64,000 bases of DNA, taken from positions 1 through 64,000 of the forward strand of contig MNCI01002470.1 in NCBI GenBank assembly GCA_015680685.1. The letters are read 5' to 3'. Shown piece after piece: positions 32,006 to 61,501 of the stretch (positions are counted from its first letter, which is position 1; every line of letters begins with the position of its first letter). A program made the translations under genes and the position numbers. This DNA comes from Gnetum montanum (lineage: Eukaryota; Plantae; Gnetophyta). Under the pieces are notes generated by a model. It saw nothing but the letters and a program-made list of their open reading frames with translations. It did not search any database and was not told where the DNA came from.

Positions 32006-32088
32006 ACATATATATAGTTTTTATAAGTGTGACATCATAGTTGCAACACTGTAGGGGCTAATACATCATATCTGCAATGTCACTGTGA
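32006..32088 (-). promoter_or_regulatory. Candidate internal promoter of the B accessory ORF
   Basis: TACATCATATCTGCAATGTCA matches the B LTR TACATCACATCTACAATGACA (22672-22692). TATATATAT lies on the ORF side. Confidence 0.5.
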
Positions 32089-35561: not shown

Positions 35562-38288
35562 GTAAGGATTTAACACTTAAGTGTGTACTTTTGAGAATTT
35601 ATCTAAGTGTGAAAAATACTTTATTATACTTGATATAGCAAACTTTGTAAAATCAACTAACTAGCAAACATAAACACATCCATGGCAACAGTACTAATGA
35701 TGAGCAGTTGTTGATTCAACACTCAACCATACAACTCACGAGTGTTCACATGTGGCATGATCATAGTCCATGGATGGATAATGTAAGTATACTAGTAGTT
35801 GATATTTAGTTAATGATCATTGTCTTCTTACATAAAGTTAGCAAATTTTAAGTTGTAGGTTTAACTCTTATTGAGGTATATGAAATGTTAATGTTGTTCA
35901 ACTTGAGTTACACTAAGTGTCAACATGGTGAAAATGATAATAAAATCTAAGTTTAAGTGCAATGAAAGTAGAAAGCTATTCTAGCTTATGGACAATAAGC
36001 AATTTTTCTTGGTTTGCCATGCACATCCTAGGCTAATGTAACCATTATTGGGATTACCAAGTGATTTCACTACTAATCAAATCAAGTAAAGTTACTATTG
36101 AATTACCAAAAAGTTACATATTCCACTTGAAATTAGTCATACTTATACCACCTTACTAAGAGACATCGGAATATAAAAAAACTTAGAAAATGTAAATGAC
36201 TTAATGAAAGTGAACATGAACATGATGAAAAGTAAAATTAAGCTAAGTGAGATCTTGCAATGGTGAAAAACAATATCAATCTTTATTTTTGATCATGAAT
36301 TACATCTAATAATAATCCACTTGAATAAAGATTACACACCTATTATTTAGCACACTATGGGTATTCACATTAACTCTAACTCTAAGCCATGAAAACAAAC
36401 TACAATAATTCTTCTAAGTGGTGGCAAAAGTTGTTGTTTTGATGTGATGGTGGGTTGGTATTTATAGGCATGACCATGGTCCACTACATCACATTTATGA
36501 TGACATATGCAAAGCCACAATATTGTAGCTACATGACACAATGGTTTTATCACTTGTTCTTAACTTAACAACATGAATTTATTTTATTTAATGAAAAATT
36601 TACTTTTAAAGTATTTTATTTTGTTTTCTTCCTTTATTTAAATTTACATCTTAGTTCAAATGTTTAACTTAAGTTATTATTATTATTATTATTATTATTC
36701 AAATATTTATTATTATGTATATATATTTTTAGGATTATGTTACTTTAATTAATGTTTTAAATTTTAGTTTGTTTTTTCAATTCTATGATTGTATTTTTTA
36801 AAAAATAATCTTTAACATTTGTGTATCTAGATTATTTATTTATGTGTATATATAATAAATTAATGTTTTTTTAAAAAAATAAATTATTTTATTAATGTTT
36901 AGTAAACAATGTTGACTTATTTTATTAGCTAGACAATTGGATTTATTGGCTAGTTAGAGAATGATAAGAATTTCATCTCTTTTAAGTGAAAAGTCAAAGG
37001 TTCAAATCTCAAGATTTTTTTTTAAATTATTAATTTTACCTTTTTTTAACTTTTTCATTATAATTTAATTTTCATGTTTGCCTTAAAACTTGAAACAATG
37101 ATGTCTTCTTAACTATAACTCCAATCATGATGAATTTAGGTGACTTAGCCTTATTTATAATTAATGGAATAGATTTGCTTATGTAATTTAGTATGTTTAG
37201 TTGTTACATTAAGTAAGGTGTGATATTAGCATATTTATTTCCTGTATGATGGCTATAACCTAATGGAGATAAGAAACTAAGGGTAATCAAGCTTTGTCTA
37301 TATAGTCTAATGAGTTGTGATTTGACAGGCCCTGATGTTAGATACACGATGTCAAAGTCTCGATGTCGCGTACCAAACGTCAGGGCTAATAAGCAACATC
37401 AGATACCCAATGTCGCCTCATTTGGACCTCGCTTATAAATACTGCACTTGGGCTTCTAGATGAGATAGTTTTAGCTTAGCTTAGAAAATAATTTTCAAGT
37501 TAGTCTATTATTTCTAGTGCATGCTGTAATGTGATGTTTGTAATCGTACAACACCTTTGTTCGAGTGTGATGTACCAAACACATTACATGACTAGCAATA
37601 AAGATCGAGATTACTTCCATCATTGCAACATCCACTTAGATTAATATTTTTGTTTTAATTATTTAATGCTTTGTTTAGTTAGACATTTCATTTATTGTTA
37701 TTTATTGTTCTTGTTGTTAACAAAAATGTGTATGCCTTAATCATGAACATTTAAGTGTAAATACTTGGTCGCTTAGAGGTGTATTATTTGGCATAACCAG
37801 TGATGTACACTTGGTAAACCCAAAAGCAACTCCATGAAGTCCAAGACATGTATGAACAGTTAAGAGTAGATACCATCACCATAGGCTAATTTAGACTTTA
37901 TTTTTCATTATTTATTAGTTTAATTAATTCACCTCTTTATCACCATCAGTAGTAGTGTAGAATTAGGAACAACATCATATGCCTCACTTGGACTAAACCA
38001 TACCTGACAAAGCTATTGCTAGTCCTAGTGGGAAGACAACGAACTACAATCAAATCATAATGATCTAGATGCCACAACTAGTCCCATCCATAGAATTTGA
38101 CTGGATCATGCGTAATGCTTATGATTCATATGGTTGAGCATAGGGGTACCTTGCCACTCATCATTAGCACAACTACAAGGGATGGTGCTAGTTATCTAGA
38201 TTATTTATATCATACACAATTATTGTAAAAGGTATTAATGATATATTCTTTATAAAATATTAAATCACACACACTATAACCAACAATA

Positions 38289-40585
38289 ATGTCTCTTCCA
38301 CATTGAAATGACAGTGCACTATATAGTGGACACATTCATTGGAGAACTAATAAGGTATATGGTGAAGAAGATTGGAGTGATCAATCTTATGTGGGAATTC
38401 TTATGATCATGACCACCTTAATGATACTCAAAGACTACATTCACCTAAGGTAGACAATCTTAGAGAAGATGGTGTAGGTCCTAGACTAGGAGAGTCCTCA
38501 AGGCCTAAGACCACTTCAAAACCAAGAAATGATAAATTAAGGGACCCTAAGGAATACCATAGAAGCCATGGAAATCCATATAGTTCCTAATCTTCTTCTT
38601 CCTCTTCCACATCTAGTTCTAACAAAGATGAATGTAGGTATAGAGATAGAGCTCCATTAAAGGGTTAGACTAAAAACTAGAATCAAACCTACAAGAAGAG
38701 TGAAAGAGGACACCATGAACATAGGAACTTCCCTCACAATCTATCTGATGATGATGAACCCCTATTGGCCACTAAGAGCCTAATGCATATCACAGAGGCC
38801 ATTAAGATATCTTGCAAGCATCACAAAAAGAGTCAACTACCTAATCTTGACATGAATACTATTCAAAAATTTGCAAGAGGCTATGATTTAGATCCACAAC
38901 AACATTTACAAGCCTTACATGATGCTTGTGCTTACTACAACATTGAAAGTGAATGGCAAAAGCTTATGCTCTTTTGTAGGACACTAATTGATAGAATCAA
39001 AGTCTGGTATCGATCGTTGAGACCAAACTCAATCTAACGATGGTTTATAATGTTAGAAATTTTTAACAAGAGATACCAAACCTATAAAAGAGTGTCCAAT
39101 CTAAGGAGACAAATCCAAGAAAGGAAAAAAGAACAACATGAACCCTTGGACATGGCCTTAGATAGGTCTTATGCCTTACTGAATCATTGCCCAGGCCATG
39201 GTTTCTTTGAGGAAGAGCAACTTTACCACATTATAGATGGGCTTCATAATGAAACAAGGGTGACCCTTGGGATGTATTCCCTAGGGGAACTATATGAGCT
39301 CCAAGCCCATTAGATCAAAGAGATCATAGAGCATATGGCAAAATAAGAAGAAGAAATGTGTAAATGGGAGAATGTCAAAGAACATCAATGAGACCCAACT
39401 CTTCAATTGAAGGAGGTTCAAATTTATGATAAGGGAAGTGAAACTACCTTTGATAAGGTGATACCACAATAGAATTTGTTGAAAAAGAAGTCTTTGGATG
39501 ATTTAGAAGCAAAGTTTAATAAGATGTCCAAATGGGTAAATGACAATGTCACAACTCTTGTTAAGACAATTGTAGAAAAGCTCATGAAATACAAGCCAAA
39601 CAATCATAATCAACATAGGACACATAACCAAGAAACAATTAGGAACACTTTTCGATAGATAAGAAGAGTGGCTAATGAAAGTGAGGCTAAAGACTCCACC
39701 ACAAATGAAGATGATGAATATGAACTATGCATATATGATCATCCAAAGGGCCAATGCCCCATATTGTTGCATCTACAAGAGTATTGGACAAGTGCCTTAA
39801 ATCCAAATTTTGTGCAAAAGAACATGCCCAGGAGACTTCCTCTTCCACAAGGTAATTTTAGATAGTTCCACAACCAACCATACCATCCTAGTGGGACTTA
39901 TTACCAACCTCAACATCCTCAACCGTAGTGGCAACAACCATAGTCGTGGGGGAGGCCACCACCAAATCAACCACATCTACTAAAACCTCATGGATATTAT
40001 GTTCAACATCCTATTTCTCCAACTAGTTTGGCATCCTCCACTTCAAATTGCCACTACCACTCTCCTAAGTACCATTACTACATGACATCTCCTAAAGGAT
40101 CACCACCTCATGCCTCTTACCATCCAACCTACCCTTAATATTCTCATCATCCACCTCCTTATGTGTCACTGCCACCAACTCAAGAAGGTTCAACACCTCA
40201 ATATCAACAAATGAGTGCTACTTGTGCTGCAAATATGCATAGATATGCTGATGCTAGTGGGTCCCAACCACAACAATAGAAACATCCCTTCTGAAGGAAA
40301 GGCCATAAGTCAAGGCAAACTATGCATGGATCCACCACATCATCTAAACTAGCACAAGGCCAATCCAGTGTATCACCTTCCTTGTCTCAACCAATGTCCT
40401 CCAACCATACACAAGGACCACCATTTGTTCAAACTCCAACCCTAAAACCAACCAATGAATCTACAAACATGGGGAGACACATGAATCCATGCATACCATC
40501 TGATACTCAAGGGTGTAACCATGGGTCAGTCATCCATAATATTAACACATCTCATATCCTGACTCACCATACATATAATAATTAG
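38289..40585 (+). pseudogene. gag: gag of element C
   Basis: LDMNTIQKFARG..HLQALHDACAYYNIESEWQKLMLFCRTLI..WYRSL and MLEIFNKRYQTY, followed by a Pro-rich tail. Confidence 0.82.
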
Positions 40586-42072
40586 GTGTGTGACCAATAA
40601 TTTTTCTACCCAACCACCACACCACCAATAGAGACCTAGTGGCTGGGACATGAAGTGTTTCCAACATCTCATACATGCATGGATCCTCTTTATCCACTTA
40701 TTAATCCTAGCTATGACCAAATGTTTAGTTTTAGGGGTTACCCCCCATTCTACTCTTGAGGATTTTGAAGTGCTTTTTATCTTTTTGTTTTACAATTTTT
40801 TATTATTTTCCTATTCTTTCTTCTTTTTCTACTTTTTCTAGTTGTTGTTTTAATTTTCCTTTTATGTAATCTCACTGTTGATCATGTTTCCCATTGAGGT
40901 GAGGTTTTCTTTCTTTGTGTTATCAAGTCATAAGCAACTAATTATTCAGACATTAAGACTATGACATCCATTCATCCATTCCATTAATAAGAGGTTCTTG
41001 CTATGGTCATAATTGTAATCTTTTTTCATCATCTAGAATCTAAATAACTTCATAATCATTATGTCTAGATGGAAGAGTGCATAACTAAGAAGGAATGTAA
41101 AGGGTGTGACATCAAGGGAATTTTTGGATTCTCTTTGACTACTTCTGTATGTTCTATCATGTTGATGAGGTTGTAACCATATCCTTGTATATCTAATGAA
41201 AAATGGGAGCAAGAGTAACTTTAACTAGCACTAAATAAGCTTCTATGGGTTCCACTAGAAACACATGTACCGATGCTTGAAGATTGATGGCTTCGCAAAA
41301 CTAAAACAAAAAAAAATTGTGTCATAATAACACTCCTCCCTTGGACACAATGTCAAGTAATCTTACTCCTTGAAACTTTGATTATCTTATGGTTGTCTAT
41401 TGATGGGATGAAACAATGCAATGTCATTGAAAGGTGGTTTGGACTTGATTTGAATCTTGGAAATAAGGACACATGGTTATTTAACCATTAATAATACAAA
41501 AAGTTTCATTATGCCCAGGGTATGACACCTCATGTCTTGATTTCTACAATCCCTTCTTCAATCCATCCTATTTCATTGTCCGAACGTTCATAACTTGTGG
41601 TTTTGTGTAACTTGGAGTAATTATCCCAATTCAATGGTTTTAACATGTGTGTTTTGTTTCATAGGTATGCATTGCATTCAACTCCTCTAGTACCTACGAA
41701 CATTTTAGGCATGGTTACACAAGGGCATCATAGGCTAGAACCTACTTTGGGGAGGATCCACTTGTGTAAATTTTGTGCTTTGTACTTGTTTCACATGATC
41801 ACATCATTTTTCCTTTGCATGCACTCCAATTGTTATATTTTATTGTTTCCCTTATCATGAACATACTTTGTCCCACAATCAAGCTTTCAATGCCCTTTTT
41901 CTTGCTCATTCTTGTACTTTTACCATTGATGAGTTCACCTTATCCTACTTTTGGTACCTTCAATTAATTTTCCCACTTACCCAAACTACAAAATTTAACT
42001 TTCAACCTTCCAATCAAACCCAAATATTCTATTTGCATATCATTTGGCCTCATAAAAATTGGAATTTTTGAA

Positions 42073-42162
42073 CCTTGATGTCATGTACTCAATGTTAGGT
42101 CCAACCCTACATTGCATACACGACATCATGTACCTAATGTCAGGTCTAATATATATATATAG
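42073..42162 (+). promoter_or_regulatory. Candidate internal promoter of the C accessory ORF
   Basis: Five CGACGTC-like motifs at about 14-bp spacing, as in the C LTR at 37331-37417, followed by TATATATATATAG. Confidence 0.6.
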
Positions 42163-42679
42163 TTGACCACCATGCAACATGAACCTTATTTATCTCATTT
42201 GTTACTAGGGGAGTTATTGCAATTTTTTCTCATGACTTAGAGCTCTACGCCTCCATCTTCCACTTGCACTATCTAGCTTTCTAACACTTTGATTTCTATA
42301 CTATTTAAATCTATCTGAACCCAGAGTGTTCAACTTAGTCATGGGGGGTGCATGTGTGCACACTTTGCACTGATTTGTTAAAATTTGCTATTTCCTAGAA
42401 TGTATTCTAAGGGTAAGAATGTTAAAAACCTTAGGAATTATAATGAAAAATCATTAACAATAGTGCCAAACATCCAATTTCTCTAACCCTCAGGTCTATA
42501 ACCATTATCTTAATCCACATATAATGAAAAAGGAACCAATTGTGATGGGTCATAGAAAAGATAGACATTTTTTGTGAGATTTTTCTTGAAAATTTGCCTA
42601 ACCCTATAATCATATACATTATGAGCTTAATGAACTAAGGTTATGAGTAAGGTATAATTGATTGATAATAATAAACATA

Positions 42680-45409
42680 ACCCTGGTCCCAAAAAGAGTT
42701 ACTAAGGGTGAACCCTCGCAAAGAGCCATTACACATCCACCTGGTGTCCATGGTCAATAAGGAGAACATGCTGAATAGGAGGCCCAATCTTTCAATGTCC
42801 ATCATGAGGCCCCTGCTACTAGGCAATTAGCCCAAGGAGAGGTGGAAGAAGTACTAGCCCCCTAATAGGGACAATGTCTCACATTGCCCCTTGACTACCT
42901 TGCTACCATTTTGAAGAAATCCGCATTGGCTTCAATCATTATGAAAATGGACTTTGGTCCATTTGTGAAATTTTCTTTAAAAGTGGTGCAAATGCAACTC
43001 AAAGGATCCCCATTATGGCTGATCCTATTAAATAGTGGTGAATGGTACTTGGGGGAAGTCTATCAATTCTAGCACAATAAGGACGAAGGTACCATTGTAC
43101 ATATCTATGGGGTGAATGTATCTTATGCAATCAAAGATATAGCTGCAGCTATCAACTTGCCCAATGAAGGGACAAAGGTTGCTCACCTATCCACTAGATC
43201 TGACCTTGAAACAAAGATACTATGGCTAAAGTAGGCATATAGCAAAGAAGATAAATCATACCATGAGATGACCTTGGAAGAGAGAAATTACTTCAAGATC
43301 GGGACATACCACCTATTTTCCATCAACGAGCTAAACTAAATTTCTACCTATATAGCTAAGGGAAGTTCCATTTCAATGGAAAAGTTTTTAGATAACCTTT
43401 CCTAATACTACTTCATGAAAATTTAGTAACAATTCAGAGAAATAAAGTTAAGGAGACCAACACTTCTCTTTCCCTATCTAATCAGAAAGTTGTGCAAGCA
43501 TCCGAGAATTTTAGGATATATTAATGATATCCTTTAGAAGGCTTGACACGCCTCCTTTATAAAAACTCCTCAAAACCACAACACCAAGAAAAGATGGTAG
43601 CAAGGAGAAAAAGCTAAAAAGGAGGTAGAACCAAGAACTGAAACACAACAAGAGCCTAAGCAGCATCCATAAGTACAAGTTTTGCCACCATCACCACAAG
43701 ATTATAGATCATCGATGAGCCACCTACAAAGAATTATTGAGACCATTAGTTGGGAGAGTAGGGATGAGGCCAATCTCTTCCAGGTTATGAACAATGTCGT
43801 ATGGCTCACTGTATTAGCTGATCCAAAAAGGGAAAAGTTCTTAATTCAATCAGGAGAAGTGAAATCCCAATGGTCATGCCAGATCTTTGGGAATGCTACA
43901 TCCTCTCAAGTCACATTAAAAACAGGAGAAGGCACCATAGTCATGGTGCTATAACATAAGGATGAAGCAGGTGTAATAGAGGTGATCATTGATTACATCA
44001 AGGAATCATTCAATGTTCCTGTTGTAACTCTGACCAATCTAGCAAGGACAAAAGATGCACAAATATTGGTTGGGACCTCAATGACTCCTGCAGTGCATGA
44101 AGATGCACTTGATCGCTTGTTGTAGATAGGTCAAGTAATGACCACTTTGTTTGGCATCCCCAACAATGTCACTACAACACAATCAGATCTCATCACTACA
44201 AAAGGAAAGTTGGTCATGGTAGAAGTCATAGTAGAGCATGTGGATGTTTAGGTGCAAAGATTACAAGCAGACTTGGCTACCCTGCAAGTTGAATGACGAG
44301 ATCCTATGTGTTTCATCACACTAGACCAACTGGAGTAGTTTTAGATGGAGGAGCTTAGCAAGCTAGAAAAGGAGAGAGTAGCTATAGAGCAAGAAAAGGA
44401 GATGGTGATCTATAATTCGTCCATTGCAAATGCATGAACCCATGTACATAAAAAGGCACTAACCACTGCCCAAGAAGAAAACAAGAAACTCACTATAGAG
44501 AATGCCCAGTTGACCATAGTGCAAAAGCAAAAGAACATTTTGGAAGAGAGTGTCCACTAATTAAAAGAATAATTGGTGAGGGTCAACTAGGATATGAGTA
44601 GATTGGCCTTAGAAAATAAAACCCTCTTCATGGAAGAGGTACGCACTACTCACTAGAAGATAGTAATCGAAATTAGTGCATAGTAGAATGAGATCAAGAA
44701 ACATGAGAAGTTAAAAGAACACTTTCATGACTAGGTTGGCATGTATTAAGAAATTAATGAGAAGTAAATCAAGATGGCCAAGGTCCACATCAACTCCTTA
44801 GTAACACAAAATTTTGAATAGTAGGCCATTTTGGACAATTATGCCATGGTCTAGCAAGTGAAAGTTAAAAATAAGGACCTCGAAATAAAAGATTTGAAGG
44901 AATACATGGCATTGGCTAACCTCATATATGCTAACCTTGCCATGTTAACAACAGGTCATCCCAGAAGCAAGTTGGAAAAGCAAGTGGCACCCACTTATGC
45001 ATTGTATGAGAATTTTGTAGATTGAAAGGATGCTTTACAAAAGTTACAAGTGAAAAAATTAGAATTAGAGGTGGTTAGAGCTAGCTACTAGGGACAAAAA
45101 GATATAGCCTCAAACCTAGCTTGGAGATTGAAAAATTATCATGAGCTAAGGGATAAAGCTAGGGCTTTCAAGGAGGAACAATGGCAGTTTGCAGCATGGT
45201 ATGTCAAGGTAAATCAAATGTTTTCACAACTACCATGTCCTTGGAATGTACTAATGCCAACACACATCAACACAACAGCCTAGATGATGGATAACCCAAG
45301 GATGGAGGAGGAAAAATTGTAGGCCTTGCTCAACCATTACAAATTTTAGTGGCCTAACGATAAAGGGAAGTAGCTGATGGAAGAGCCACCACCTCTAGGT
45401 ACCACATGA
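42680..45409 (+). pseudogene. env-position accessory ORF of C
   Basis: GEPSQR near the start, then PLWLILLNSGEWYLGEVYQF and FPYLIRKLCK, a long E/K/Q/L-rich segment, and LPCPW; ends DKGK*LMEEPPPLGTT*. The start is approximate. Confidence 0.78.
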
Positions 45410-45598
45410 GCTTCCTAGTTCTATTTCTAATTTTATTCTATAATAATGTGTCTGATTTTTGTACTACACCACTATGGCATGTGACAAATCAATTATTTCA
45501 TCCATTGTTTAAGTCAGTCAATAATCACATACTTGCCCAATATTTTGTAAAGAACTTATTTCTCATTTTGTTTAACTCAAGGATGAGTTTTCATAGTC

Positions 45599-45831
45599 TA
45601 AAGAATGAGGTTAAAAAGGTAGGACATATCATTATTATCTTATGAATGAATAATGTCCCTACAAATCCTTTACTTATGATCAATACTAGTTAAGTAGAAG
45701 GGATTAAATAATGAGAGGTTTACTTAGTGGAAAGAATCTACATTTTAAAGCTTTATATCATGGGTTAAATGTTAATGAATAATTCTAAGCCATAGAGTTA
45801 TAATTAGACTACATATCTTGGGTGTTAGACC

Positions 45832-45862
<31 letters not shown>

Positions 45863-48800
45863 TAAAAATTCAAAGTACAAAAGCAAAGGATTATTATAAA
45901 GAGGAGAAATTCCAAATCAACAAAAAGGAAAGGCCTAACAATTTTGAGGATGTCTTTTCATGATTTTATCCTTAAAAAACTTCTCTTTGGGTTAGGAAAT
46001 TAGACATTTCATGATAAAATTAACATTGGTTAGAGGGGGAGGAGGCCCATGGCCTATTAATAGAACCAACAATATCAAAAGATGTTACCTCTATATCTTG
46101 AGCAATGGCTACAACTAAATTATTAGAAGTTAAAATATCTTGAACATATTATCTATTCTAAAGATTTGACATGTAATCACCAATAAATATATTTTTTAGC
46201 ATTTTCTATTATGAAGAACTATTTGGAAGCCATCTAAATCAACAATAAGTTTTTGTAAGACCTCAAGAACAAATATTTATTTTCCCTTAGTTATTAAAGG
46301 ACTATTTAAAATTTATTTGACTTAAACCTTCCTCAAATTTATATTTGATTGAACATTAGTAAAGGAACATTTGTTTATAGTAGCTTGGTGTTAAGACACT
46401 TGCGTAGCCTTTATCGTAGTATAAAAGAACATGAATCAAACATATGATCTTCTTGATGATACTAGTGACATGACTTTGGAGGATTATAATAAACTAGAAA
46501 TTAGAAATTGGAAATTTTTATTACATCTAGAAAATCACAAAAGATTTGTTGAACGATTACAAATTCACAACATATTTATGAAAAAATTTAAAAATATCAT
46601 TAATGTAATGCCCTAAGTAGGTAGGATCAACTTAATAGAAAGCAATCAACAAATTACAATTAATAGTGTAATTCAATGATTATGAGCCAAAGATGGACAA
46701 AATAAAAAAATGTTCTTCATCTTCTATGCTTTGCTTATATAGTGTACAAATGCACTCTTCTCTTGCCAAATTGATCCAACAAGTTGTCTCAATAAGCAAA
46801 TGATGAGAGCTCATTCTTACTTTAGCAATTTAATTTCTTAAATGAATGGAAATAGCCAAGAATAGATTCTCTTGAGTACTAGATAATAAACCTTCTCTAC
46901 AATAATGTAAATACAAATATTTTTTTCCTTGATGTATTCAACCTCTTTTATAATTTTTCAAAAGAGCCTTTTGTTTAAAGGAAGATCCTCTATGACAATA
47001 TTCTATGATTGAAGCCATAATTTTCCTTAATGCAATTATCCATTTTCTTGTGTAGCCTTCATTATTTCCTTAGCATAATTAACTTCCTTCATGTGACTTA
47101 ACTTTTGAGTAATAACAATAAATTAACAAACAGCTTCAACTTCAAAAGGATGCAAATCTGCTTCTAAAAGTAAGATATCATAACAAGTCTGCATTCTTAC
47201 TTAGAATTCACATACAAAAAACTATTTTTGAACATGCTCTATTTTTTTCTAATTATTTGTGAAAAGAGAAGATCCCTAAGAAACACACCCATAAAATAAT
47301 ACAAGTTGGATAAAACTACAAAAAAGTTTTTTTTTCTAATCTCTAATGCCAAAATTTATTTCCTACTATAATTATTAGTTAGAGAAAATAGAGCTCACAT
47401 GCTACTTAAAACCCTTTGAGTAATAAGAGTATAATAACTATAATTACTAGCAAATTCAACTCCCAAATATTTATAAGATTCACATATATCAACTCTTTTT
47501 TTTAAGGAAAAAATTATAATTTCTATTTCTAATATCACAAACTAGAATTTTAGTCTTATCAATATTAACTTTCATGCCAAAATGGTTGCATTAGTCATGG
47601 ATAATTTATAGTATATAATTTAATCTTATAGCTAATTTTGCAATCAAGTCCACATCATCCACAAAGAGAAGCATGTTCAAAAATGATTCTTTCACTAACA
47701 TACCATAGTGAAAGGAATTTTTCATCCATTCCTATAATTCATCTATAAATATTCCAAAAGGATAGGGGATAAAGGATAGCCTTGTTTAACTCCAACTAAG
47801 CTATTGATAATTATTCCTTCTCTAGTAAGATTATCTTTAATAAGAATGTTAGCCATTTCATAGATTCTTTTAGCACTAATGCACCACCCCATTTAAGAAG
47901 CTCTGCATATAATCCATTAATATCAACATCTTTCCTAGAAGATAATCTTTGAATTCCTATAGAAACATCATCAAGGGATAACTCAAAAATACTAGAGTTA
48001 TCTTGCATAATTAGGGAAGCTTCTTGAATAAAAAGATCATTGAAGAAAGTTTGAATAGTAGATAAGGAAAAGTCCCAACAAGTTTTTTGTCTTGGAATAA
48101 ATTCTAAAAGCTCTTAGGATTTGAGAGGAGCACATAGAACATTCTTTCTTGCTCTTATTTAATGAACATTTGTTTTTTCAAACAAATAAGCTTTCTATAA
48201 TTCTTTAGCATTGAAACATCAAAATATGAAGTTATAACATCTTTACCAATTATCAAATATCCCACATCACACTAAGGTTTTCTACAAGCAAGCCACTTCT
48301 TAATTTGCACCTAAGAAACTGTAGACAAAAGAACATTACTTAGATATACCTCTTTTTCATTGTTAACTAACAAATTAGCTACTCTTATTTGAAAATCCTA
48401 ACAAAAGTCTTCTATGAGATGACAAGTTATGCATTTCTTGTAATGAATATGATGAATTGAAATAAGAATAGTGAATTTTAAGTAATGATGAGGATATTTT
48501 GGGAGTTTTTCTTTGACCTAAACGTTTTTCACTACATCTATATTATCCTGAGTAGACAGGACCAATGCAAGAGTTACCTTCATGCCTAGTAAAGGTGAAA
48601 TGAGAGGAAGAAAGAACTATGTTGATGTCATTAAGGATTAAAAAATCAAAAGAATGATCCCACTCTAAGAAATGAATACCTTTATGATTTATACTATGAT
48701 CAACAAATGAACTTTTGTAAACTCAATAGATTCTTCACAAAGTTTAATTAAGAATTTCAAATAAGTCTTTGAATCTCACTTTATCCAACATGAGCATTAA

Positions 48801-49383
48801 AATCTTCACAAGAAAAAGCTTTACCAAGCTTGAAGAATCCTACACGATCTTGACCTAAGTACTAAAAAGGATGCTCTCATGAATGATTGTAGAATTGTAG
48901 ATAGAAGAATCACTCAGAGCAAAATAAAAAAATGCAATCTAAAGAACCTCTAAAATGCCTTGAATGTGAACCCACGAATATTGGTTATTATCATCAACTT
49001 TCTACACCTTCATGAAATTATCTCTCGACTTTTTAATTAAAGAAGAAATACCACCAAAAGGTCTATCCCTCACCTTAGAATGATTATTTCTAAAAGAAAT
49101 GATATGAAATCCTAGAATAGATATAATTGAAAAATTTTCTTTTTCCTAAGTTTTAGCAAAAATAAATAGATAAAAATGACTGAAGAAATGACTAATATCT
49201 AAAGTAACAACTTTATTAGCTAATGAACATTTAATATTAAGGAAACCATATGTAATAGAAGAAAATTCCTTTATTGGGGGATTTTCTCTCTCTTTAATAC
49301 TACAACATATTTATAATTCAAGTACGAAATTTTAGCTTCACCATGAGCTTGTTTTAATTTTTTTCATTCTTCTTGATTTTTTA
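45599..49383 (-). mobile_element. Old two-ORF LINE (ORF1 end + ORF2 APE-RT), possibly RTE-X-like
   Basis: APE start GFLNIKCSLANK...LFIFAKT* (about 49150-49250). RT motifs GVKQGYPLSPILFGIFIDEL (about 47735-47795) and LLFVDDVDL (about 47644-47673). Probably continues left of C (about 37040-37302). Confidence 0.8.
45832..45856. repeat. (TA)n microsatellite
   Basis: About 12 TA units. Confidence 0.9.
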
Positions 49384-50500
49384 CATACTAATGAGTGGCT
49401 AGGTAACCCTATGCCCAACCATACGAATCAAGGGTGTTCACATGTGACTTAGTCGAATTCCACAGACTGCAAACACTTGCATACATCGAACTCTAGCCAA
49501 CAAAACCTTAGTTAGAATGGTCTTTGTCTTCCCAACCTCACTAGTGATATTCTAAAGTGATGGTTAAGTGAGATTGAGGAAAATGATGTTTATTGGTTTT
49601 CTCTTTTATCTTTTAAAGTCTAATTATTTAATTGTAGGAATTGGAAAGTTGTGTGAATTATAATTATTCTACTCTATTGCTTAACTCTCCTAGGTATAAG
49701 CAACCGATCCCATCTTCTGTGCACGTCTTGAGCATACCCTAACCACTACTACATTACCAAATGTTAAGCGTCACTAGGTTACCAAGTGTTTGATATATGT
49801 TCGAGATGATCATGCCTATGGTTCTCATAAAATATGAAAGGAAAATAATAGTAAAATGATAACAATAAAATCTTTAGGAATTATTAAAGCATTGAAATAT
49901 TAAACTATTAAAATGCTTAAGTGATTAAATCCAAATGCTGCAAGGAATGCTCAAAACCTCATCTTTATTGTTGGTCATGCCAATGGGCTTAGGTACATTA
50001 GCTCTCAAATAAAGAGTCGTACACCTTTCTCACACCTACTACAGGCACTTGGAAAATATTCTAACTCTTATGAGAACAAACTACAAGAGTTTGGATACAA
50101 CTACTCCAAAAGATACCATACATGTTGTGGGTGCACGCATATTTATAGCAAGAGACAGACTCTGCGTTAATGGAGTCACGTTAACACATGAATAGATACA
50201 TCGATGAGGTCACATCAACACAGCCATGTCAATGTGACTCCGTTAACATGGCCTAGTCGACGTATCAACTGAACACTTCATCATACCAATACAACTGAGT
50301 GAAAACTCATCCTCAAGTTTATTACAATTTGGAATGTATGAAGTTATTGACTGTACACACTACGAAACACATTTACACACAGACTAACTCTATTAACATA
50401 CTAAGTGCCCATGTGTATGGAAAAAATAAATTACAAAATTATGGTGTTCAGAGACAAAATTGAACACCTTACCAAAAAATGTTAAATTTGCTGGAGAAGG

Positions 50501-53345
50501 TCACACCATCCCTGGTGGTGATGGTTTTGATGGATCTTCACCGACTTCTGGGGCATGTGGTTGTTGTGACATTGATGATGGTTACCCTACAACAGCTACA
50601 ACTTCTAGAGGTAATCGAAAAGCCTCCAATATTGCCCTCATTTTATCTTCTTTGCTTCTAGGATCATTCACTATCTAGGCAACTTCACCAATGTGTGCTA
50701 GAATAGGAACATCCCAAGGACATGGAAGTTTAGGAAAGAGTTTCAAATTGACAAACCAAGCAATGAAATGTTTTCGTTTGATATTGAATGCTCAGATTGA
50801 TGTCTGCAACTACTAGTAGTTGTTCATTCATCAAGCCAAGTTCTCTGTAACCACACGTTTTCCTTCAAAACAAGTGCAAAGAACTTTGAGTTTCACATTG
50901 GCTATTTCTAACTTTTGCTTTGTCTCTTTATGTGCTTGGAACTCACCCTCGTATAAAGAATATGAGGGGGCCACTTGTTTCTCTAAGTTTGATCAAGGCC
51001 TTTTAGCTATTAGCATTGCTAGGTTTGCATAATGGAAATTGGCTAACTCCATGTATTCTACCATTTCTTCAATTTGTAGCTCTTTGAGGTAGATTTTAAC
51101 CTAGTTGTAGGCATTCAAGCCATCGAAGATGGGCTGTCACACCCTGCCTCCTTCCTAGAGCTACCAGAGTGCTTAGTTCATTTTAGCCTTTGCGACTTGA
51201 ATCTCTTTTTTGTTGACTTCCTTTTGCAATTCCACTTGGTCCCTATAGTGATTTTGAACTCGTTCAAACTTAAGGGCCTCATTTTTCCAAGTGGCAATTT
51301 CAATTGTTGATTTCTGTCATAAGGTTCAAACTTCCTCCATAGATAGATTACGATTTTCAACTGCCAATATTCTCACATTAGTGTTTACCCTAGCTAGCTC
51401 CTCCTATTGTTGATGGATGAAGTCTTTCATGTGTTGATTCTTAACAAAAACATTTCACATACAATGAACTTCTAGGGTCAACCTGACATTCTCTTGGTGA
51501 ACCTCTACCAAGTCCTTATTTAGATGGTAAGCATGAGCATCTATTAAGGACTTGTCAAAGATTGCCAACTCTCGCTCTCCCTCAACCTTCTAAAGTTTGG
51601 TTTGAAGTTGTTAAAAAGCTTCATCCTTGGCGAGTTCATGGTTGATAAGAACTGGATCAGCAAGTTGGACCCTTAATTAAGAAACTTTCATAGCCAAGTG
51701 TTGATGATCTGCTTGTGTTGCTTTAAGTTGCCCCTCCAAGATGAGGCACTTGTCCCTTGCTAAGAGCAGCTTCGACTGGGTTGCAGTAATGTTGTCTAGA
51801 AGATCAAAGACATCTAGAAGCAGTTACCTAGTTCCCACCATTCAATCTAACAACTCTTTATGTGATCCTACTACGTGAAGTTCCTGTGAACATTTGTAGA
51901 TCTTTAAGTCCATGTACATTAGGTACAGGCACTGTAGGTGCATTAAAGATCATAGCAATTGTGTCAGCAACCACTTCAGCTGTAACTTCTTGTCCCTGGT
52001 GTTACATTACCAAGATAGTCACCCCCCCCCTCTATCCTCCAATCACACTAAAAAAGTAGCAGCATTTCCTAAAATTTTAGGAAATAATTATTGAGTGAAC
52101 ATTGTTACTTCTCAAACACTAGGGTCAATTCTAGTAGGTACTTGCATTCGGGTGATAGAAAATATCAGCCCTACTCTCTCTAGTAGACTCATTGATCGAG
52201 CCACTTGCTCAAGATGGCTCATCATAAGGCGATAGAACAAAGTGTCTTCCTCTCCACCAGTTCCTACTAATCGCTCTTATTAGTTCAAGAGTGATTGTTA
52301 GATCTTGAGCATCTATTCTACAATTGTCTACAAGCCCAACCTTGTTGTTCACGTAGGCGGTGGAGGTGGTTGCTACTCTTCCTTGAGTTGTGTTGTGGCC
52401 GGACTCTTGTCCTTCATCATCTCCCACCATGAGGTAATTGGGGCATGAAAAAGTGTGTCATTGGTGTATTGTGCTATCCCTGACCGTTTACACAATTTTC
52501 TAATTAGGTAAGGAAAAGGAAAATCTTGTCTTCCATGTTCATTTTTAGTAAATCTCTTCTCAATCTCCAAGAAAAGTAACTGTGGAAGGTTGATGGGGAA
52601 CTTTCTGCTTAGACTGGCACATGCACGAGTAGAGAAGGCCATGATCTTGCTGGGTCTTACCATTAGATTCAAGTGGTAAGACATGATTTTTGAATAAACC
52701 CTCTCTACAATGGTTAGGGTGCCAAACTCCTTGCATTCTACCCCCATAGCATTGCCTGATCCACTTCCCTTTTACCTTAGGGTCTACTTGTTTAGGAATC
52801 TCTGCCATGTCAGCTCCAGTCTCTAGCAACCCAAGAGCTTATGTAATCACTTTGGCAGAGTAAGAGACATGAATGCCTTTGATTATTACTCTGGAACCTG
52901 GTTGTCGATTTGTTTAGAAGAGGTAAGTTTCTCCCAAGTACCATTCACCACTGGAGGTGATGACTGGCCACATAGGAGAATTTTGCAATTAGGTTTTGAC
53001 TTCCTTTGGTGCATTCTCTAGAAACAGTCAAAAGTTTAACTCCTGAAGGACCATTCTTTGTAACTCCCTCAACTTGATAGCATCAATATAGGCTTGGCTC
53101 AGGGTGACCTCAAGTTGTGGCACTATCACAAGAGTCTCATCCCTTTGCGATTGTCTACTAGGGACATCCACTTTGGGAACCTGACAAACAAATTCCACAT
53201 TAGGTTCTTCGTGGAGGGGGTCAGTTGCATGTGAGCCCTCCACATGCTCTAGAGGTTGTGCACCTCATCCTCTTTCTATTCTCAGTCACTTGTCCCTTAG
53301 TTGGGATGGTCCTTCTACCCTTGGATGCCTCAGTTTGGGTGCCAT
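50501..53345 (-). pseudogene. env-position accessory ORF of E (~950 codons, disrupted)
   Basis: Starts MAPKLRHPRVEGPSQ, then WPVITSSGEWYLGETYLF, FPINLPQLLFLEI and FPFPYLIRKLCK, a long charged segment, and LPCPWDVP. Confidence 0.82.
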
Positions 53346-53788
53346 CTATAGTCACAACATAACCATGAATTAAAATGTTTATATAAATTGTTGAAAATGG
53401 CAATCATACACCTTCTCATTTTGACCAAGCTATGACAATGGCACGTGCATCCTATTAGGTTCCCCAGAGTATAGTTGAGGGGTTAGAAAAAATAATCAGA
53501 CATGAGTTGCAATTTATAGTGTTATTTTTTTTCTTATTTATCCCCTAAGAGGTGTTAAGTCTTTGATAATTATAATAATAATTATAGACCTCACCCCCCC
53601 CCCCCCCCCCCCCCCCCACCCCCCCATGATGAAGAGCATACCTTTGGTTGTGAAAGGGTAGAAAAAATGGTTGGATTGGGACAAGCGGTGGAAATGTTTT
53701 GTGCTTGAAAAGAAGTATTGGCGTAGAGGAATGGAAAAACTCCCTTAGCATTGTGAACAAATGAACAAATTCCAAAGGCGCAATCGGG

Positions 53789-53882
53789 GTATATATAAAA
53801 TTTTTGCCATGCATCAACGGGGCTGCATAGACAAGGCTATGTAAACGTAGGAGGATGTGTATACAGGGCCTAGTTGATGTAG
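53789..53882 (-). promoter_or_regulatory. Candidate internal promoter of the E accessory ORF (palindrome array + TATATATA)
   Basis: Five CGTCGACG-like motifs at about 14-bp spacing. GGCCTAGTTGATGTA here matches GGCCTAGTCGACGTA in the E LTR (50250-50264). The TATA lies on the ORF side. Confidence 0.6.
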
Positions 53883-55449
53883 TTGTGCTTTGAATATTTA
53901 TTTGGGTTGATTGTTAAAGAAAAGGTCCAAATTTGTGAATTGGAGCACAACATGGGGATGAGGGATCGTGCGATGGTAAGCATAGAAACAATTAACCAAC
54001 CAAATCAAGGGGATAGGATATTAACAAACAGAACCAAAGGATATGTAAGTGGGTCCTCCCCATAGCAGGTGGTAGCCTCAGTAACCCTTGCATATCATTA
54101 ACATAGGAGTCTGCGGGCCCCATAGTTAATTAATGGTGACCATGAGTTAATACCCAAATCCATGAGAACCAATCGAAGAATTAGCAATTCTAGAAGAACA
54201 CGATAGACATTCAAGACATACAACTAGCAATGAGGTGAATAATGGGAAGAAAATGATGAAGGGAAGAGGGAGTGAGATGGAATTCCTAATGTTGGTCACA
54301 TAAAATCTCTTGTGAAGTGTGTAATTAAGTGACTTGGTAGGATTCATCCTTAGTCTAGACCCAAAACCAACCATGTTCAGTGACATCGCATCAATATTCA
54401 AAGACTAGTCCATCCCCTCGGGGGTACAAGAATTCTCCCAAAAACAACCACCACTCCAACATGAGTGAGCGAGAGGAAGTGAAAAAGGGGTTAAGTTAGA
54501 GGGGATAAAGAAAGTCCCATAACTAGTTCTTGTAGCCTGTTAGAGATAGTCTAAGGGGTATGCTTTGAATTCCCATGTGTTTGTTGTTTTTTTTTCTAGG
54601 AACCACACCATGCAAAGACCCATGTCTTTTCACATGCATTTGGCCAAGGGGTGTGCTTTGAATCCTTCTCTTTTTTGTTTTTGTTTTTCTTTTTTTTAAT
54701 GAGGACAACACCATGCAAGGACAAATTTCCATGTAACTTACAATTAGGAGAGGATATGGAGTGGTAAGAAGTCTATGAGGACACACTTGCATGCAAGGGA
54801 ATAGAAAAGTACAAAGAATGTTGCATTCCCCTTGAAGTCACATCCTGTTCAAACCATTGGGTCCTTCTCAAGTCTAGAAACTACTCAAGTCATGAATTAA
54901 TTAATTTTTTTTTTTAATTAAAAGGGATTGCATGTTTCCAAAAGAAGGAAAACCATGGAGTGGGTGGATGGGTGGATGATGTGGACTCACTGCCTATTAC
55001 ATGAACTAAGAGTTGAACGTGACTACCAAAACAACAATGCAAAGGTGGGAGCTAGATATAATAGGTGGACCATATCATGCAACCCATCGCAAAGAGAAAC
55101 AACCGCTCCAGTACATCTTGTGACAATAAGATGACTTATTAATAAAAAATATAAAAAAACTAGAAGATAAGCACATACATACATATATATAGAAAAATAA
55201 ACAAATAAATAGATAAGTAAATAAAGAAAGAAAAAGGAAGCAAGAATGGCAAATGTACGAACGATGTTGTAAAACAAAAAGGTGTAAAACAAAAATTTGC
55301 AAAAGCAACTAAGGAGCTAGTAGAATTGATTAGCATAGAAGGTGATCTCCCTCATCACTAAGTTGAGAGGAGGAGATCCAAAAAATGGAACAAGGTTGGC
55401 TTTGTGATGAGAGGGTAGTGGCACTGGTTCATTGGAGTTTGTGGAAAGG

Positions 55450-58400
55450 TTTTAATTATTGTGTATTAACTAACTGTGTTTTTTTGAGATCCTGAGGTTT
55501 GTGTATAAGAAAGGCCCCAAACAAAAAGGTTTTGGAAACAATATAAGGTCCATTCCATAGTGTTTAAAACTTAGTATGTTGCAGTACATGTGTGGGGTTC
55601 TAGTAGAGTACCTTATCTCCATGTCGAAATGTTACCTTCTAAATCCTAAAATCATGACATTTTTAATTATAGGCCTTGTGGATTTCATTTCATGATAGGG
55701 CTACTAATCGATTCTCATCTAGCATAGTCAAGTTGATGAGTCATTCTCATTGTGCTAGTGATAAGTCAAGACCCAAGTCACTGGTAATAGATAGTGTTCA
55801 GAGTTTTGCCTGAACTAAAGGTTTCGGTAGTTTCCCGTACACTAACTCGTAAGGAGAGTAGCCTATAGAAAGTTTTCATGTGGAGCAATAGGCCCAAAGG
55901 GCATCATTAAGTTTTTTGCTTCAATCCCTCCTATATTTGCTAATGGTCCTAGTTAGGATCCTTTTAATCTCCCTATTTGTGACTTCGGCTTGCCTGTTGG
56001 CTTAGGGGTGATAAGGTGTTATAAATTTGTGTTCAACCCCCAAGTGTTCCATAAGTTTATAAAAAGTAGTGCCCATGAAATGAGTTCCATTGTCTAAAAT
56101 GAGTGCATGTAGCACCCCAAGCCATTTCACAATTTGTTGGTGGACAAATCGTGTAGGTGTGTTTAAGGAACAATTAGTAACGACTGCTTCCTCTACCCAC
56201 CTAGTACAGTAGTCTACCATGACGATGATGTATGCCTTCCCATTAGACATGGATGTGATGGAACCCATGATGTTAATGCCCCAAATATCAAAGGGTTCCA
56301 GTGGCTAGATCCACTGTTGGTATCACTCCATTCATGAAGTCATCCCACCATCTCTTTGACATCGTTCACAGAAGCAAGTGAACCATTGCGCATCTCTAAA
56401 GAGTGTCGGCTAGTAATATCTCATGAGCATGATCTTAATGGTCGTGCATCATCCAACATAGTGGCCACCACAAGGGCCCTCATGAGCATCTTGGAAGATG
56501 TGTAGTGTATCCATATCAAGACTGCACCATTAAACCAAGCCATCCACACACACCTTGTAATGGTGTCCATTGATTTCCATGAAATGCTTGGCCTTGTGAA
56601 GAAACTACTACTTCCTTCGATCGTCCCACTCTTTTGGTAATTCTTGTGTTGAGAGATAGGTGAGGATGTCACTGAACCAAGTTGATCCTATGGGCATCTC
56701 CTTATCAATTGCTCCAACAAAGAGGAGTTCGTCTGGAAATTGATCGGAACATGGCTCCTCCTCCTCTAAATTGTCCCATCATAGTCGAGATAAGTGATCA
56801 GCAACCACATTCTTAGTTCCCTTGCTATCTACCATAGTAAGGTCAAATTTGTGAAGGATCACAAGCCACCATATGATATAGGGACTCACCATTGGTTTTT
56901 TCATCAGGAACTAGATGGCACTATAGTCAATATGTACAAACACCTTGTACCCAAGCACATAGTGTCAGAATTTTTCCAAGGTGAACACCACTGCCATTAA
57001 TTCATTTTCAATGGTGGTGTAGTTGAGCTGAGCACCCATAATGCTTTAGCTTGCACAATGGATATAATATGGACATCTCTAGTCATCCAACTATGTAAGC
57101 ATGGCTTCCAATGCATAATTAGACACATCTATCATTATATGAAATGGTCTAGACTAGTCGGGTGCTCATAGAATTGGAGTTTCTATGAGTTTTTGATCGA
57201 GTGTTTGGAATGCAGATTTTCATTCCCTGGTCCAGAAAAATGAAGTGTCTTTCCTTGTGAGTTTCACCAATGGTTTGGCGATCTTCAAAAAATTCTCAAT
57301 GAAGCATTAGTAATAACTAGTGTGGCCAAGGAATGATCAAAAATCTTTTATAGCACTTGGTTGACTGGTGATTCCTTAGATGACCTTGATTTTTTCAGGA
57401 TCTACACTAATCCCTGCTTGTGAAATGCAGTGCCCTAGAACAATGCCCTCTTAGACCATTAAGTGGTTCTTTTGCCAATTGAGCTGTAAATTAGTTTCCA
57501 CACATCTTTTTAGAAATTGCTCAAGGTGGACCAAAGCTTGTTCAAATGTTACTCCGTAGGTAGAGAAGTCATCCATGAAGACTTCTATCCCATTGCCAAT
57601 ATGCTGAAATATGTTGAGGACAAGGCATTAGAAAGTTGCAGGTGCATTGCATAGGCCAAAGCGCATCTTCTTATATGTGAAAGCCCCCTAGGGGCTTATG
57701 AATGTTGTCTTGGCCTGATCTTTGGGAATGATTTGGATTTGGTTATAGCCACTATAACCATCCAAAAAGCTATAGTAACAATGCCCCGTAATGGTATCCA
57801 ACACTTGATCCACAAATGGAAGTGGGAAGTGATCCTTGAAGGTTGTCATGTTTAGTGGTTAAAAATCTATACAGACCCTCCATTTTCCACCCTTATTTGG
57901 CACAATAATAAGTGGGCTATCTACAATGGAATAGATGAACCCCACTTTCAAAAATTTCTCAATTTCCTCCTTGATAACTTGCTTTAGTTTAGGGTTCAAC
58001 CATCATTGTGGTTGTCATCGTGGCTTCATGGAGGAGTCAATATAGATCCAATGTTGGCACACCCTAGGGTTAACTCCCATTAATTCTTGATATGACCATG
58101 CAAAAGAAGCCATCCATTTCTTTACCATTTTTAGCAATTTCTTCTATTGCTCAAGAGCAAGAGTGGCATTCATGATTATCAGCTTGCCATTCTACAAGAA
58201 TGCATATTCTAGATTGGTCGGTAATGTTTTTAGTTAAAAGGGCTCCTTTCTAAAGCTTTTAGGGATCTGTAGCTTCCCCCAATCATCACTTTCATCAATA
58301 TTAGAGACTTGTTGATGAACCTTTTCCAATTCATCCATGCTTTTCATATAGGAACATACAAGGCCCTCAAATGGTTCCATGCATAAAGTGCTACTATCAG

Positions 58401-61400
58401 AGTCAGTGATCAGCCACTAGGTGCCTTCTTAATTCATGGTTGCTGCATATAGGCATCGTTGAACTTGTGATTCTTCGGCACATCGATTACATGCTTAGAT
58501 CTCTGCTTAGTAGATCAAGGTTGCTGCACACAATTGCACCTTGAGTCACTATACATGATGCATGAAACATGATTCTTCTTGATCTTCCACAAAGGATTTT
58601 CTTTTAAAATTTCAAGGGAAAGATATTGGAGTCTCAATCATGCATCCACCATGTTGAGCCAAGCTCTCCCCATTATGATTGGGAAATTCCCCTTGCAATT
58701 GTCAACCCGAATGACCAAGAAGTCAGTAGGATAGGACCACCCACAAACAATGGTCATGATATCTTCTACCAATCCCAAGGGTACAGTTATGGATTGTTCT
58801 ACCAACTCAAGCTGAATGTTGCTTTTCTTCATCGAGGATAGGTTCCAAGTCTTGTACATATCATGTGAAATCAAATTAACACCTGACCCTGAATCCAAAA
58901 GAGCATTACATGGATTTTTTCTTGCCACTTGAAGGTATATGAGGGGACTCCCTAGATCAGTTAATTTTCAAGGGAGATGACCTGCCTTTATCTAATCTAT
59001 CACAACATGTGTGAGCATGATGATTTGTACTATGGAGGCTGTTTGTCTTGAAGGTTGCTCGAAGGGTTGAATAGTGGGGACGATTGGAGGTTCAGAGGCA
59101 CTAGCCACAAGTGAATGTAAGGGTATGTTAGGGATATTAGGCTAGAAGAAAGGGAATTTCCATGGTTTTGATTTCGTCCCACTCGGCTAAGATGCTGGTT
59201 GTAAGTTGACAGCCCTCATGGCATTGCATTGCTATGGCTGTGGTGGTATCTCTCACTACATAGGTGGAGCAAGAGGTAGCTAAGTGGGGGCTTGATGAGT
59301 AGGTATGGTAGGAAAAGGTGATGGAGGATAGTATAGATGTGGGTTCTCCTCCCTAGGTCATGGAGACTCTGTTAAAAAGTATTTTGGGAGGTGGTAATGA
59401 GTTTGAAATGTCATGTGCCTCGAAGAGTCTCGTGGGGAGACTGGTTGTTGAATGTAGTACTCGTAAGGATCTGGCTACCGGTAAGGGTACTGCTGCCTTG
59501 GAGGTGGCATCCCCCATGATTGTGGATGTTGCCATTACTAGTAATACTTGTAGGGTTGTGACAATGCTCCACATGTATAATATTCTTATTGCTAGTGGAA
59601 CTGCTTGGGATTTCCTTGTGGATAAGGCAATCTTTGGGGTGTTTACCTTTTTGCCAAATTATGGTTTAGTGCATACATCTGAGACTCTTGTAGATGTGAC
59701 ACCACTGGGTAACACCCCTTAGGATGTTTGTACTAGCATATGTCACATCCATCATCCTCTGTACCAGAGTCTGTAACCCATTCTACCACAGCAACTTTGC
59801 CCTTACCTTTATGGTAGGCACATTTAGCTTCTCTTCTCCTTTGCTAATCTCACTCATTACTTTGCTCTTTGGATTCCTCCATGATTTTCAAGACACTTTG
59901 GAACCTTTCATCCAAAGAATCCCACATATTGTCAACCTTGGCCACAATTTTAGAAGCAAATTTTTGTATGGGCAAGGTCTTTCAGTTCACCGCTACATCT
60001 AGTGGTGATTCTTCCTCCTCTTCACAAAATTAGACTTCCTTCTTTCAAATGGAAGGGTCCTGATTATACTCTTCTTCGCTCTCTTTTTTACTGAATTCCC
60101 CCTCTTCTTTAGCCACTTGCTTAATTAGGTGCTATAGCTGATGGGCCTTCAATTCAAATAGTTGTCCCTGAGCATAAACGCCTAGGGCCTTTCTTGTTTC
60201 AAAGCGAAGCCCATCTATGATATGGCAGAGTTGTTCCCACTAAGAGTAGTTATGATCAGGGCATCAATGTAACAATGAATAATATCTACCCATGGTTGCA
60301 TCCAATGGTTCATGACCACCTTTTTTCCACCCTTGGATCTACCATCTTAGATTAGCCACTCTAGAGTAGGTTTGGTACTTATCATTGAAAATTTCCAGCA
60401 TCATACTCCATCTCCTGATTGATTCCAACTCCAAAGACCAGTACCAGCTTTCCACTTCCTTAATGAGTGTTCAATGGAATAGCTTGAGTTTTTGTCAATC
60501 ATTGTCTATGTTCTGTAGGTGCAAGCATCATGGAATGCTTGCGAGTCTGTAAATCACAATGGTATCCCCCTTCAAATTTTGGGATATTGTTCGTGTCAAG
60601 GTGCTTGATCCAATTTTATTTCAAGTGCCTTGGCTATGTTAAGCATGCTTCAAGTAGCCAGCAGTGGTTCATCCGAGTCATAGTCCTGATGTTGGCCACG
60701 ACGTCTGTGACGATTTTGGCTGCCTTTTGTTTCTTGATGGTGAGACTCACGTGATTGGTCACACTTTTCCTCACGTCATCCCTATCAGTCCTTGCAATCT
60801 CATCAGTCTTTTCGATCACCATCACCCCAATCCTTCCTACTACAATTACTATCAAAATTAGAACTTGATGAAGACAAGGTGGAATGATAAGATGGAGAAT
60901 AGGGAGGAGAACTACCACCATTCCAGCATCGATCTCCTCCTCTACTTTAATGATAACCCCTATCTTCATGTCCATCTTTCCCTTTCTCATGATCTTTCTT
61001 GAGTGATCCCCCATCATCCTAGTGCTCCTGGTCACTTAATTGTTTACTTTGGATGATGGACTGGATGATCTGATGCATTGTAGGAGGTTCAGCCAAATGG
61101 GAATCATGAAAAATAGGTTCCTCATCATCATGCAGGTATTGCAAGAACAAAGGGTTACTGAACTATTTCTCCTTTAAGTGTTCATGGCGTTCTACCTGTT
61201 GTCGGTCCTGCACATGTTGTGCCTTAGTTGGATGATAATCTCAGTAGTCATGATCCTCCATTATGTATTCCACACCATGGCCTTGAATGCCCAGTTTGCT
61301 AAGATTTTGAACTGGCATTCCAGGAACTGACCAATTAGGAGGTAATATGATGTTACCCTCCATGTCCCACCATCGCAGGTGCTCATCCTGATGTAGGATA

Positions 61401-61501
61401 AAGGTGAAGTTGGGGATATACTCATCTGGATGTGTGTATACCACCCAACACTCCTGTGACACTAGTGGGTTGGATCTATCTAGCCTGTGAGAAGAAGACA
61501 T
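55450..61501 (-). pseudogene. gag-pol: gag-PR-RT-RNaseH-INT of element E
   Basis: Protease ALLDSGSGVNLI. RT WRVCIDF, DHFPLPFVDQVLD, SFLDGYSGYNQI, FGLCNAPATF and IEVFMDDFS. RNase H FHIMIDVSNYA. Integrase VDYCTRWVE, LILDNGTHF and TPYHP. Gypsy domain order; many stops. Confidence 0.95.

Follow-up and report, generated by a model that had tools for sequence, protein, structure and literature searches.

Palindromic arrays at a putative internal promoter of Athila-type retrotransposons in Gnetum montanum resemble those in the long terminal repeats of the same element

We analyzed a 64-kb window of CpG-depleted plant DNA (Gnetum montanum, contig MNCI01002470.1, positions 1 to 64,000), which holds four old Athila-type long terminal repeat (LTR) retrotransposons, elements A, B, C, and E. 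In B, C, and E, an array of palindromic motifs precedes the TATA box of each LTR, and a second array with a TATA-like box lies upstream of an accessory open reading frame (ORF). The second array is likely to belong to an internal promoter, the sites of which evolve together with those of the LTR. We put at about even chances the fuller proposal that the element encodes a VANC-like protein acting on the element itself as an activator or anti-silencer, and that its sites at the LTR promoter and the putative internal promoter co-evolve. The original prediction was of a second promoter tied to the LTR by a common factor, possibly the accessory protein. It is supported in part: the sites have turned over with those of the LTR, whereas internal transcription and binding are what we infer.

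Arrays at LTRs as well as upstream of the accessory ORF

The unique 3′ (U3) region of each LTR is about 90–140 bp long and consists largely of 8-bp palindromic sites, the array ending 17–20 bp before TATAAAT. In the 5′ LTR of C (37309..38163, plus strand; U3 of about 125 bp), the sites lie at −101, −87, −73, −59, −40, and −26 (37333-37415) from TATAAAT at 37434, and a primer-binding site (PBS) of the Athila type follows the LTR. This type of PBS is presumably the one assigned to tRNA-Asp. In E, the sites span −115 to −25 from the TATA boxes of both the 3′ LTR (49391..50283, minus; array 50165-50262, TATA 50147) and the 5′ LTR (61669..62562, minus; array 62444-62541, TATA 62426; PBS directly inside). 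The offsets −101, −87, −73, then −59 or −40/−39, and −25/−26 are common to C, E, and A. The half-sites differ despite these common offsets, being of the CGA-NN-TCG type in C and A and the CGT-NN-ACG type in E, with C/T and G/A changes allowed. The LTRs of B (3′, 21888..22737, minus, array about 22665-22730, TATA near 22655; 5′, 35695..36552, minus, array and TATA 36466) carry an ill-defined motif. In A, the site centers read AT where those of C have CG-derived bases, and the array has a different copy number in each of the two LTRs (five sites versus one or two; 14632-14715 and about 19990-20030).

The internal array of C (42076..42160 with its TATA-like box at 42151, plus) has five CGA-NN-TCG-type sites at −75, −61, −44, −30, and −16 (42076-42142), spaced by 14/17/14/14 bp. 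That of E (53790..53879 with its box at 53798, minus) has five sites at −81, −67, −49, −35, and −21 (53812-53879), spaced by 14/18/14/14 bp, and a donor-like AGGTATG lies 155 bp downstream. The internal array of B (32006..32092 with its box at 32019, minus) was located by the motif-free scan and site mapping, and its block 32055-32092 aligns with 22665-22701 in the 3′ LTR. The same two approaches found no internal array in A, which retains only a stub of the ORF. The arrays and TATA-like boxes of B, C, and E lie at the coordinates originally given for them. The second set was predicted 450–520 bp upstream of the ORF, and the measured distances from the internal TATA are 453 (E), 465 (B), and about 530 bp (C). 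As background, TATA-like matches occur in 1.2% of 25-bp bins. Pairs of CGA-NN-TCG sites at exactly 14 bp occur 10 times in the 64 kb, eight of them in the U3 regions of A and C or the internal array of C (2.6 expected). Pairs of CGT-NN-ACG sites at this distance occur 11 times, eight of them in the U3 regions or the internal array of E (4.6 expected).

In the motif-free scan, each of the five LTRs from B, C, and E was compared with 2,794 non-LTR windows, and every one had the internal array of its own element as the best match. Pairs of an LTR with its own internal array give z values of 4.2–6.9 against shuffles, while the cross pairs among the three elements give at most 1.6. The original observation that the internal arrays match their own LTR variants best is confirmed, with narrow margins over the runner-up for E5 and B. 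These margins (17.0 versus 16.9 for E5; 17.4 versus 16.5 and 16.7 versus 16.1 for B) are among several caveats to this observation. The U3 of the B 3′ LTR as used in the scan contained part of the TATA box. The internal array of C aligns better to the 3′ LTR of A, which is related to that of C, than to its own LTR (65.5 versus 58.0). The motif patterns were picked after inspection of the sequence, the motif of B is poorly defined as noted above, and the internal array of E gives only one match under a fixed-center motif (p 0.14), its site centers being free.

Origin of the internal arrays

The positions and surroundings of the internal arrays should be noted, since they bear on how the likeness to the LTR arose. 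Downstream of the internal TATA, the leaders of different elements are homologous to one another (z 6.9 and 8.2, with a weak 2.1) and show no relation to the repeat (R) regions of the LTRs; the inferred leader of the C accessory gene (42161..42685, plus) is homologous to that of B (z 6.9) and weakly to that of E (z 2.1). The arrays themselves show no relation across elements; each is related to the LTR of its own element. The five-site layout of 14, 17–18, 14, and 14 bp is common to the internal arrays of C and E and is present in neither LTR, and their flanks are partly homologous. Nevertheless, the internal site cores of C and E follow the own LTR (0.68–0.80 versus 0.45–0.54), and the spacers likewise lean to it (0.64–0.67). 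The common layout and partly homologous flanks, combined with different motifs, indicate that the internal module was inherited and that its sites were replaced in register, turning over with those of the LTR. The leaning of the spacers suggests that short sequence transfer may supply the site changes. Judged from the sequences, the history of the internal promoter module is a mosaic.

An alternative is that U3 overwrites the internal array now and then through template switching or gene conversion, so that the likeness would come from copying and selection on binding would be slight. The likeness to the own LTR in spacers as well as cores, the contiguous block shared with the own LTR in B and the 15-bp block in E, and the unequal copy number in the two LTRs of A would all suit copying. 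However, C and E share an internal layout unlike those of their own LTRs, and the likeness ends at the array, the leaders being unlike R. Moreover, the internal spacers of E match the LTR of A as well as that of E (0.69 versus 0.65–0.67), and elements without the ORF lack the copy. We consider copying as the main cause to be unlikely.

A relic of a whole nested LTR was also considered as the source of the internal array and rejected, since the leader is unrelated to R and a purine tract lies downstream of TATA. In C, E, and B, a purine-tract-like motif follows the internal TATA at a distance of 170–190 bp (about 42340, 53628, and 31848); A has a counterpart (about 15447), and the motifs resemble the sequence of relatives at the 3′ LTR junction. 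Extra purine tracts have been reported for Athila4 and Calypso.

Relatives, the accessory protein, and element structure

Scanning metagenomes for Athila-like pol yielded 78 loci, 34 of which are at least 6 kb long; the LTR and the region before the ORF could both be delimited in four. In L050, 41 GC-rich 9-mer positions are common to the two regions against 0.9 expected, and in L004, 70 against 3.4, while L067 and L001 show no enrichment of such common 9-mers. Coupling between the LTR and the internal region is thus found in two of the four testable younger relatives. Other element-specific arrays precede the ORF in L030, L077, and L058, on contigs without an LTR. The ORF-less L052 shares no array; elements without the ORF lack copies of the array in the linker in both cases examined (A and L052). 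A TATA-like box ahead of the ORF is absent in four of six relatives. In B, C, and E the motif was seen at the two promoters only; in L050, L030, and L004 it was seen also in the leader intron or in repeats after pol.

Chance likeness of CG-decayed, AT-rich sequences could draw on the patterns having been picked after inspection, on the weakness of B, and on the narrow margins for E5 and B. In contrast, the five top ranks were obtained with a score that uses no motif, the 14-bp pairs are concentrated in the arrays, and the same coupling appears in the intact L050 and L004. These results largely refute chance, to which we assign a minimal probability.

Two relatives deserve separate description. 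In L004 (12938-13672, 16816-16906, 19395-19465), a short element-specific motif occurs in a tandem array after pol, near the 3′ end of the LTR, immediately ahead of the ATG, and within the accessory ORF. This scatter is VANC-like; the element is nearly intact, with an accessory ORF of 913 amino acids and LTRs 99.4% identical. In L055 (3400-3705), a CG-rich palindrome array akin to the L050 motif directly precedes the TATA box of an Athila-like LTR.

L050, L067, and L030, like E, have a splice donor together with an acceptor located at the ATG or shortly ahead of it. This layout suggests a spliced leader, and is compatible also with splicing from the LTR RNA. In public RNA data (seven of eight runs, at 80% likeness), the reads were mostly less than 90% alike, the depth at the internal promoters was low, and no start or splice joint was seen there. 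Splicing from the LTR transcript is part of another explanation, in which the palindromes form RNA or DNA hairpins acting in packaging, dimerization, or as small-RNA decoys. The unit is indeed palindromic, in B, E, L050, and L067 the ATG comes immediately after an AG, and spliced env-like RNA is reported for Bagy2 in the available part of PMC7264820. However, constant phasing and a constant TATA offset suit protein–DNA binding better, transcription from the LTR presumably starts downstream of the U3 arrays, and Athila6A has an annotated internal promoter. Hairpins are thus an improbable explanation.

The accessory ORF of C (42686..45370, plus; a single frame of 895 codons with 38 stops) has an N-terminal PF20167-like domain and a long helical C-terminal region. 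It has no membrane helix: the best 19-residue hydropathy is 1.24, with 0.96–1.56 in four relatives, whereas the PF03078 protein of L058 reaches 2.3. An envelope of the retroviral type was therefore rejected. The fold of the PF20167 domain is weakly predicted to resemble that of VANC21, and the top structural match of the ORF is a protein that binds DNA sequence-specifically. At E ≤ 0.001, however, Foldseek returned no hit for either of two models, and the PF20167 profile has no sequence match in the PDB. A word-based search with the ORF of C matched none of 7,992 candidates. An HMMER search gave three matches, namely two fragments of relatives and a repeat protein, the latter being discarded as spurious. 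Neither the viral contig searches nor Rfam gave a match.

The nature of the factor should be considered here. A real internal promoter could instead bind a host transcription factor through both arrays, with subfamilies switching factors and both promoters following. This accounts for the position of the arrays beside both TATA boxes and for their co-variation, and most matches of Sirevirus motifs in PLACE were to stress-related host sites according to the accessible part of PMC2829016. That study, however, found no single factor for those motifs. Co-resident elements also keep the 14-bp phasing and the TATA offsets (−101, −87, −73) yet swap half-sites, which is unlikely for different host factors, and the best predicted structural match of the ORF is itself a DNA binder. 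A host factor is accordingly given a low probability, comparable to that of copying.

The self-encoded regulator that we favor builds on observed features: the arrays, their phasing, the element-specific motif, the match to the own LTR, the inherited flanks, and the lack of a membrane helix. Transcription of the accessory gene would be driven by the internal TATA, and the transcript would have an intron in its leader that ends at the ATG. The PF20167-like domain may bind the arrays directly as an oligomer, as the palindromes 14 bp apart and the long helical C-terminus hint. Bound at both arrays, the protein would activate its own gene as well as the full-length RNA, or release them from silencing. 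When its specificity shifts, selection would hold the two arrays in step, short transfers between the LTR and internal arrays being the likely source of new sites. Such a positive loop could let each subfamily escape silencing separately, and copies without pol (B and C) or without the ORF (A) may have been served in trans. More tentatively, and on balance doubtfully, the "env-like" ORF of Athila, and possibly of Sireviruses, may encode not an envelope but a VANC-like DNA-binding regulator of its own promoter and the LTR arrays. This would be a subfamily-specific, self-amplifying anti-silencing switch in which the protein and both arrays co-evolve.

The coding sequence of every gene in the four elements is disrupted, and the LTRs within elements diverge by Kimura two-parameter (K2P) distances of 0.16–0.22. 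B, C, and E, the originally predicted set, all hold; element A had been overlooked. A (13851-20052, minus) has LTRs akin to those of C with 14-bp arrays, and its accessory ORF is a short stub near 15200. B (21888-36552, minus; K2P 0.220 between LTRs) lacks pol, and its broken accessory ORF (28940..31554, minus) is homologous to those of C and E. Downstream, this ORF is interrupted by a nested LTR element (23287-28932, minus), which carries remnants of copia-like coding sequence and lies between the ORF and the 3′ LTR. C (37309 to about 45600, plus) has lost its 3′ LTR; its stop-broken gag (38280..40760, plus; PF03732, E 2e-7) is followed by no pol. E (49391-62562, minus; K2P 0.164) has both LTRs and a target duplication. 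Its accessory ORF (50600..53345, minus) contains stops and frameshifts, starts with an ATG at 53345 right after YAG, and gives a weak PF20167 match (E 2e-4, under the curated cut-off).

Only E retains pol, within a broken gag-pol region (55400..61500, minus) that contains gag, reverse transcriptase (RT), one RNase H, and integrase. The best database matches of this pol are plant pol proteins at 40–50% identity, indicating a divergent lineage, and one of the top matches is a protein fused to PF20167. The order RT–RNase H–integrase is that of the Athila clade (Ty3/gypsy, OTA). Neither an additional archaeal-type RNase H (Tat) nor a chromodomain was found at E ≤ 0.1 in the decayed pol of E, and their absence is described as a feature of the clade in the part of PMC6317226 at hand. 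The PBS of E resembles that of L067, the target duplication is of 5 bp (GTATG), and extra 3′ ORFs are present on the sense strand. On domain order, PBS, target duplication, and ORF, the four elements are assigned to the Athila type.

Near the start of the window, a young, undecayed CG-rich segment (1132-2330, plus; GC 0.55, CpG observed/expected 1.32) follows an N gap. It has 11 CGT-NN-ACG-type sites in 13-bp phase before TATAAAT at 1470 and then more short repeats. Nine of the window's 10 exact copies of CGT-NN-ACG lie within 1140-1364, with a grammar as in the arrays of E. A short tandem repeat array (1-189) adjoins a 942-base N gap.

Comparison with known systems

What plant env-like ORFs do has been an open question for more than 25 years (PMC7264820, PMC6317226; both in part). 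A candidate binding site at two places per element, together with a candidate fold, turns this question into a direct binding test. If the proposal is true, a highly abundant lineage of plant retrotransposons counters silencing through a sequence-specific loop of a kind so far demonstrated in DNA transposons alone. Such a loop could explain subfamily-specific bursts, the convergent layout of Sireviruses, and the clade-specific LTR hypomethylation in sunflower Athila described in the available text of PMC12844716. In the literature outside subscription journals, we found nothing on co-variation of LTR and internal motifs in Athila or on a link between PF20167 and VANC; the accessible parts of PMC7319988 and PMC12859917 hold nothing on these points.

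Several systems share parts of the arrangement. For Arabidopsis Athila6A, an internal promoter is annotated for the ENV ORF (PMC4977677), a second promoter upstream of a 3′ accessory ORF as here. The part of that account at hand gives neither a motif array nor a link to the LTR promoter, and the present lineage is divergent (pol 40–50%). Grande has a 3′ accessory gene with its own promoter, according to a title cited in PMC11963269, and family-specific repeats nearby. In sunflower Athila 14 (PMC11728184), a PF20167 domain with a predicted nuclear signal is described, and a 2026 atlas supplement, in the portion available, terms the domain "Athila-exclusive." The ORFs of Grande and Retand are, however, antisense TRP28 genes, and the accessible texts on Grande, Retand, and Athila 14 mention neither LTR-matched arrays nor a VANC link. 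In foamy viruses, Tas binds the internal and LTR promoters (PMC517496, in part). Tas/Bel1 belongs to vertebrate retroviruses and resembles the Athila case by analogy only.

VANC proteins bind co-evolving motifs of their own family (PMC5735166) and resemble PMD proteins (PMC13547354), as far as the available sections of these papers go. The present system is like VANC/VANDAL (PMC5735166; PDB 9lnk and 9lnj) and PMD MAIN/MAIL (10.1101/2024.09.27.615353, in part) in having an element-encoded protein and family-specific arrays that co-evolve, and the PF20167 domain is weakly predicted to be similar in fold to VANC21. VANDALs are, in contrast, Mutator-like DNA transposons with non-palindromic motifs across non-coding regions, as described in the sources at hand, whereas an LTR retrotransposon with phased palindromes at two promoters is concerned here.

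The closest layout is that of Sireviruses (Ty1/copia SIRE), in which element-specific CG-rich palindromes lie upstream of the LTR TATA and the env-like ORF, and for which the authors suggested an internal promoter (Bousios et al. 2010, PMC2829016; accessible part). Linkers of ENV-less Sireviruses lack the palindromes in that account, and ORF-less elements lack the linker copies here as well. The present elements differ in being Ty3/gypsy with CGA/TCG and CGT/ACG half-sites, as opposed to Ty1/copia with a CGG-CCG core. The available part of the Sirevirus study identifies no internal TATA, shows no in-register turnover, and proposes host factors as opposed to a protein of the element. The Athila system works like the repeated motifs of Sireviruses but is not a member of them. 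What is new here is that the Sirevirus layout recurs among Ty3/gypsy elements of the Athila type, where there is evidence that the sites turned over in register and the element itself encodes a candidate reader.
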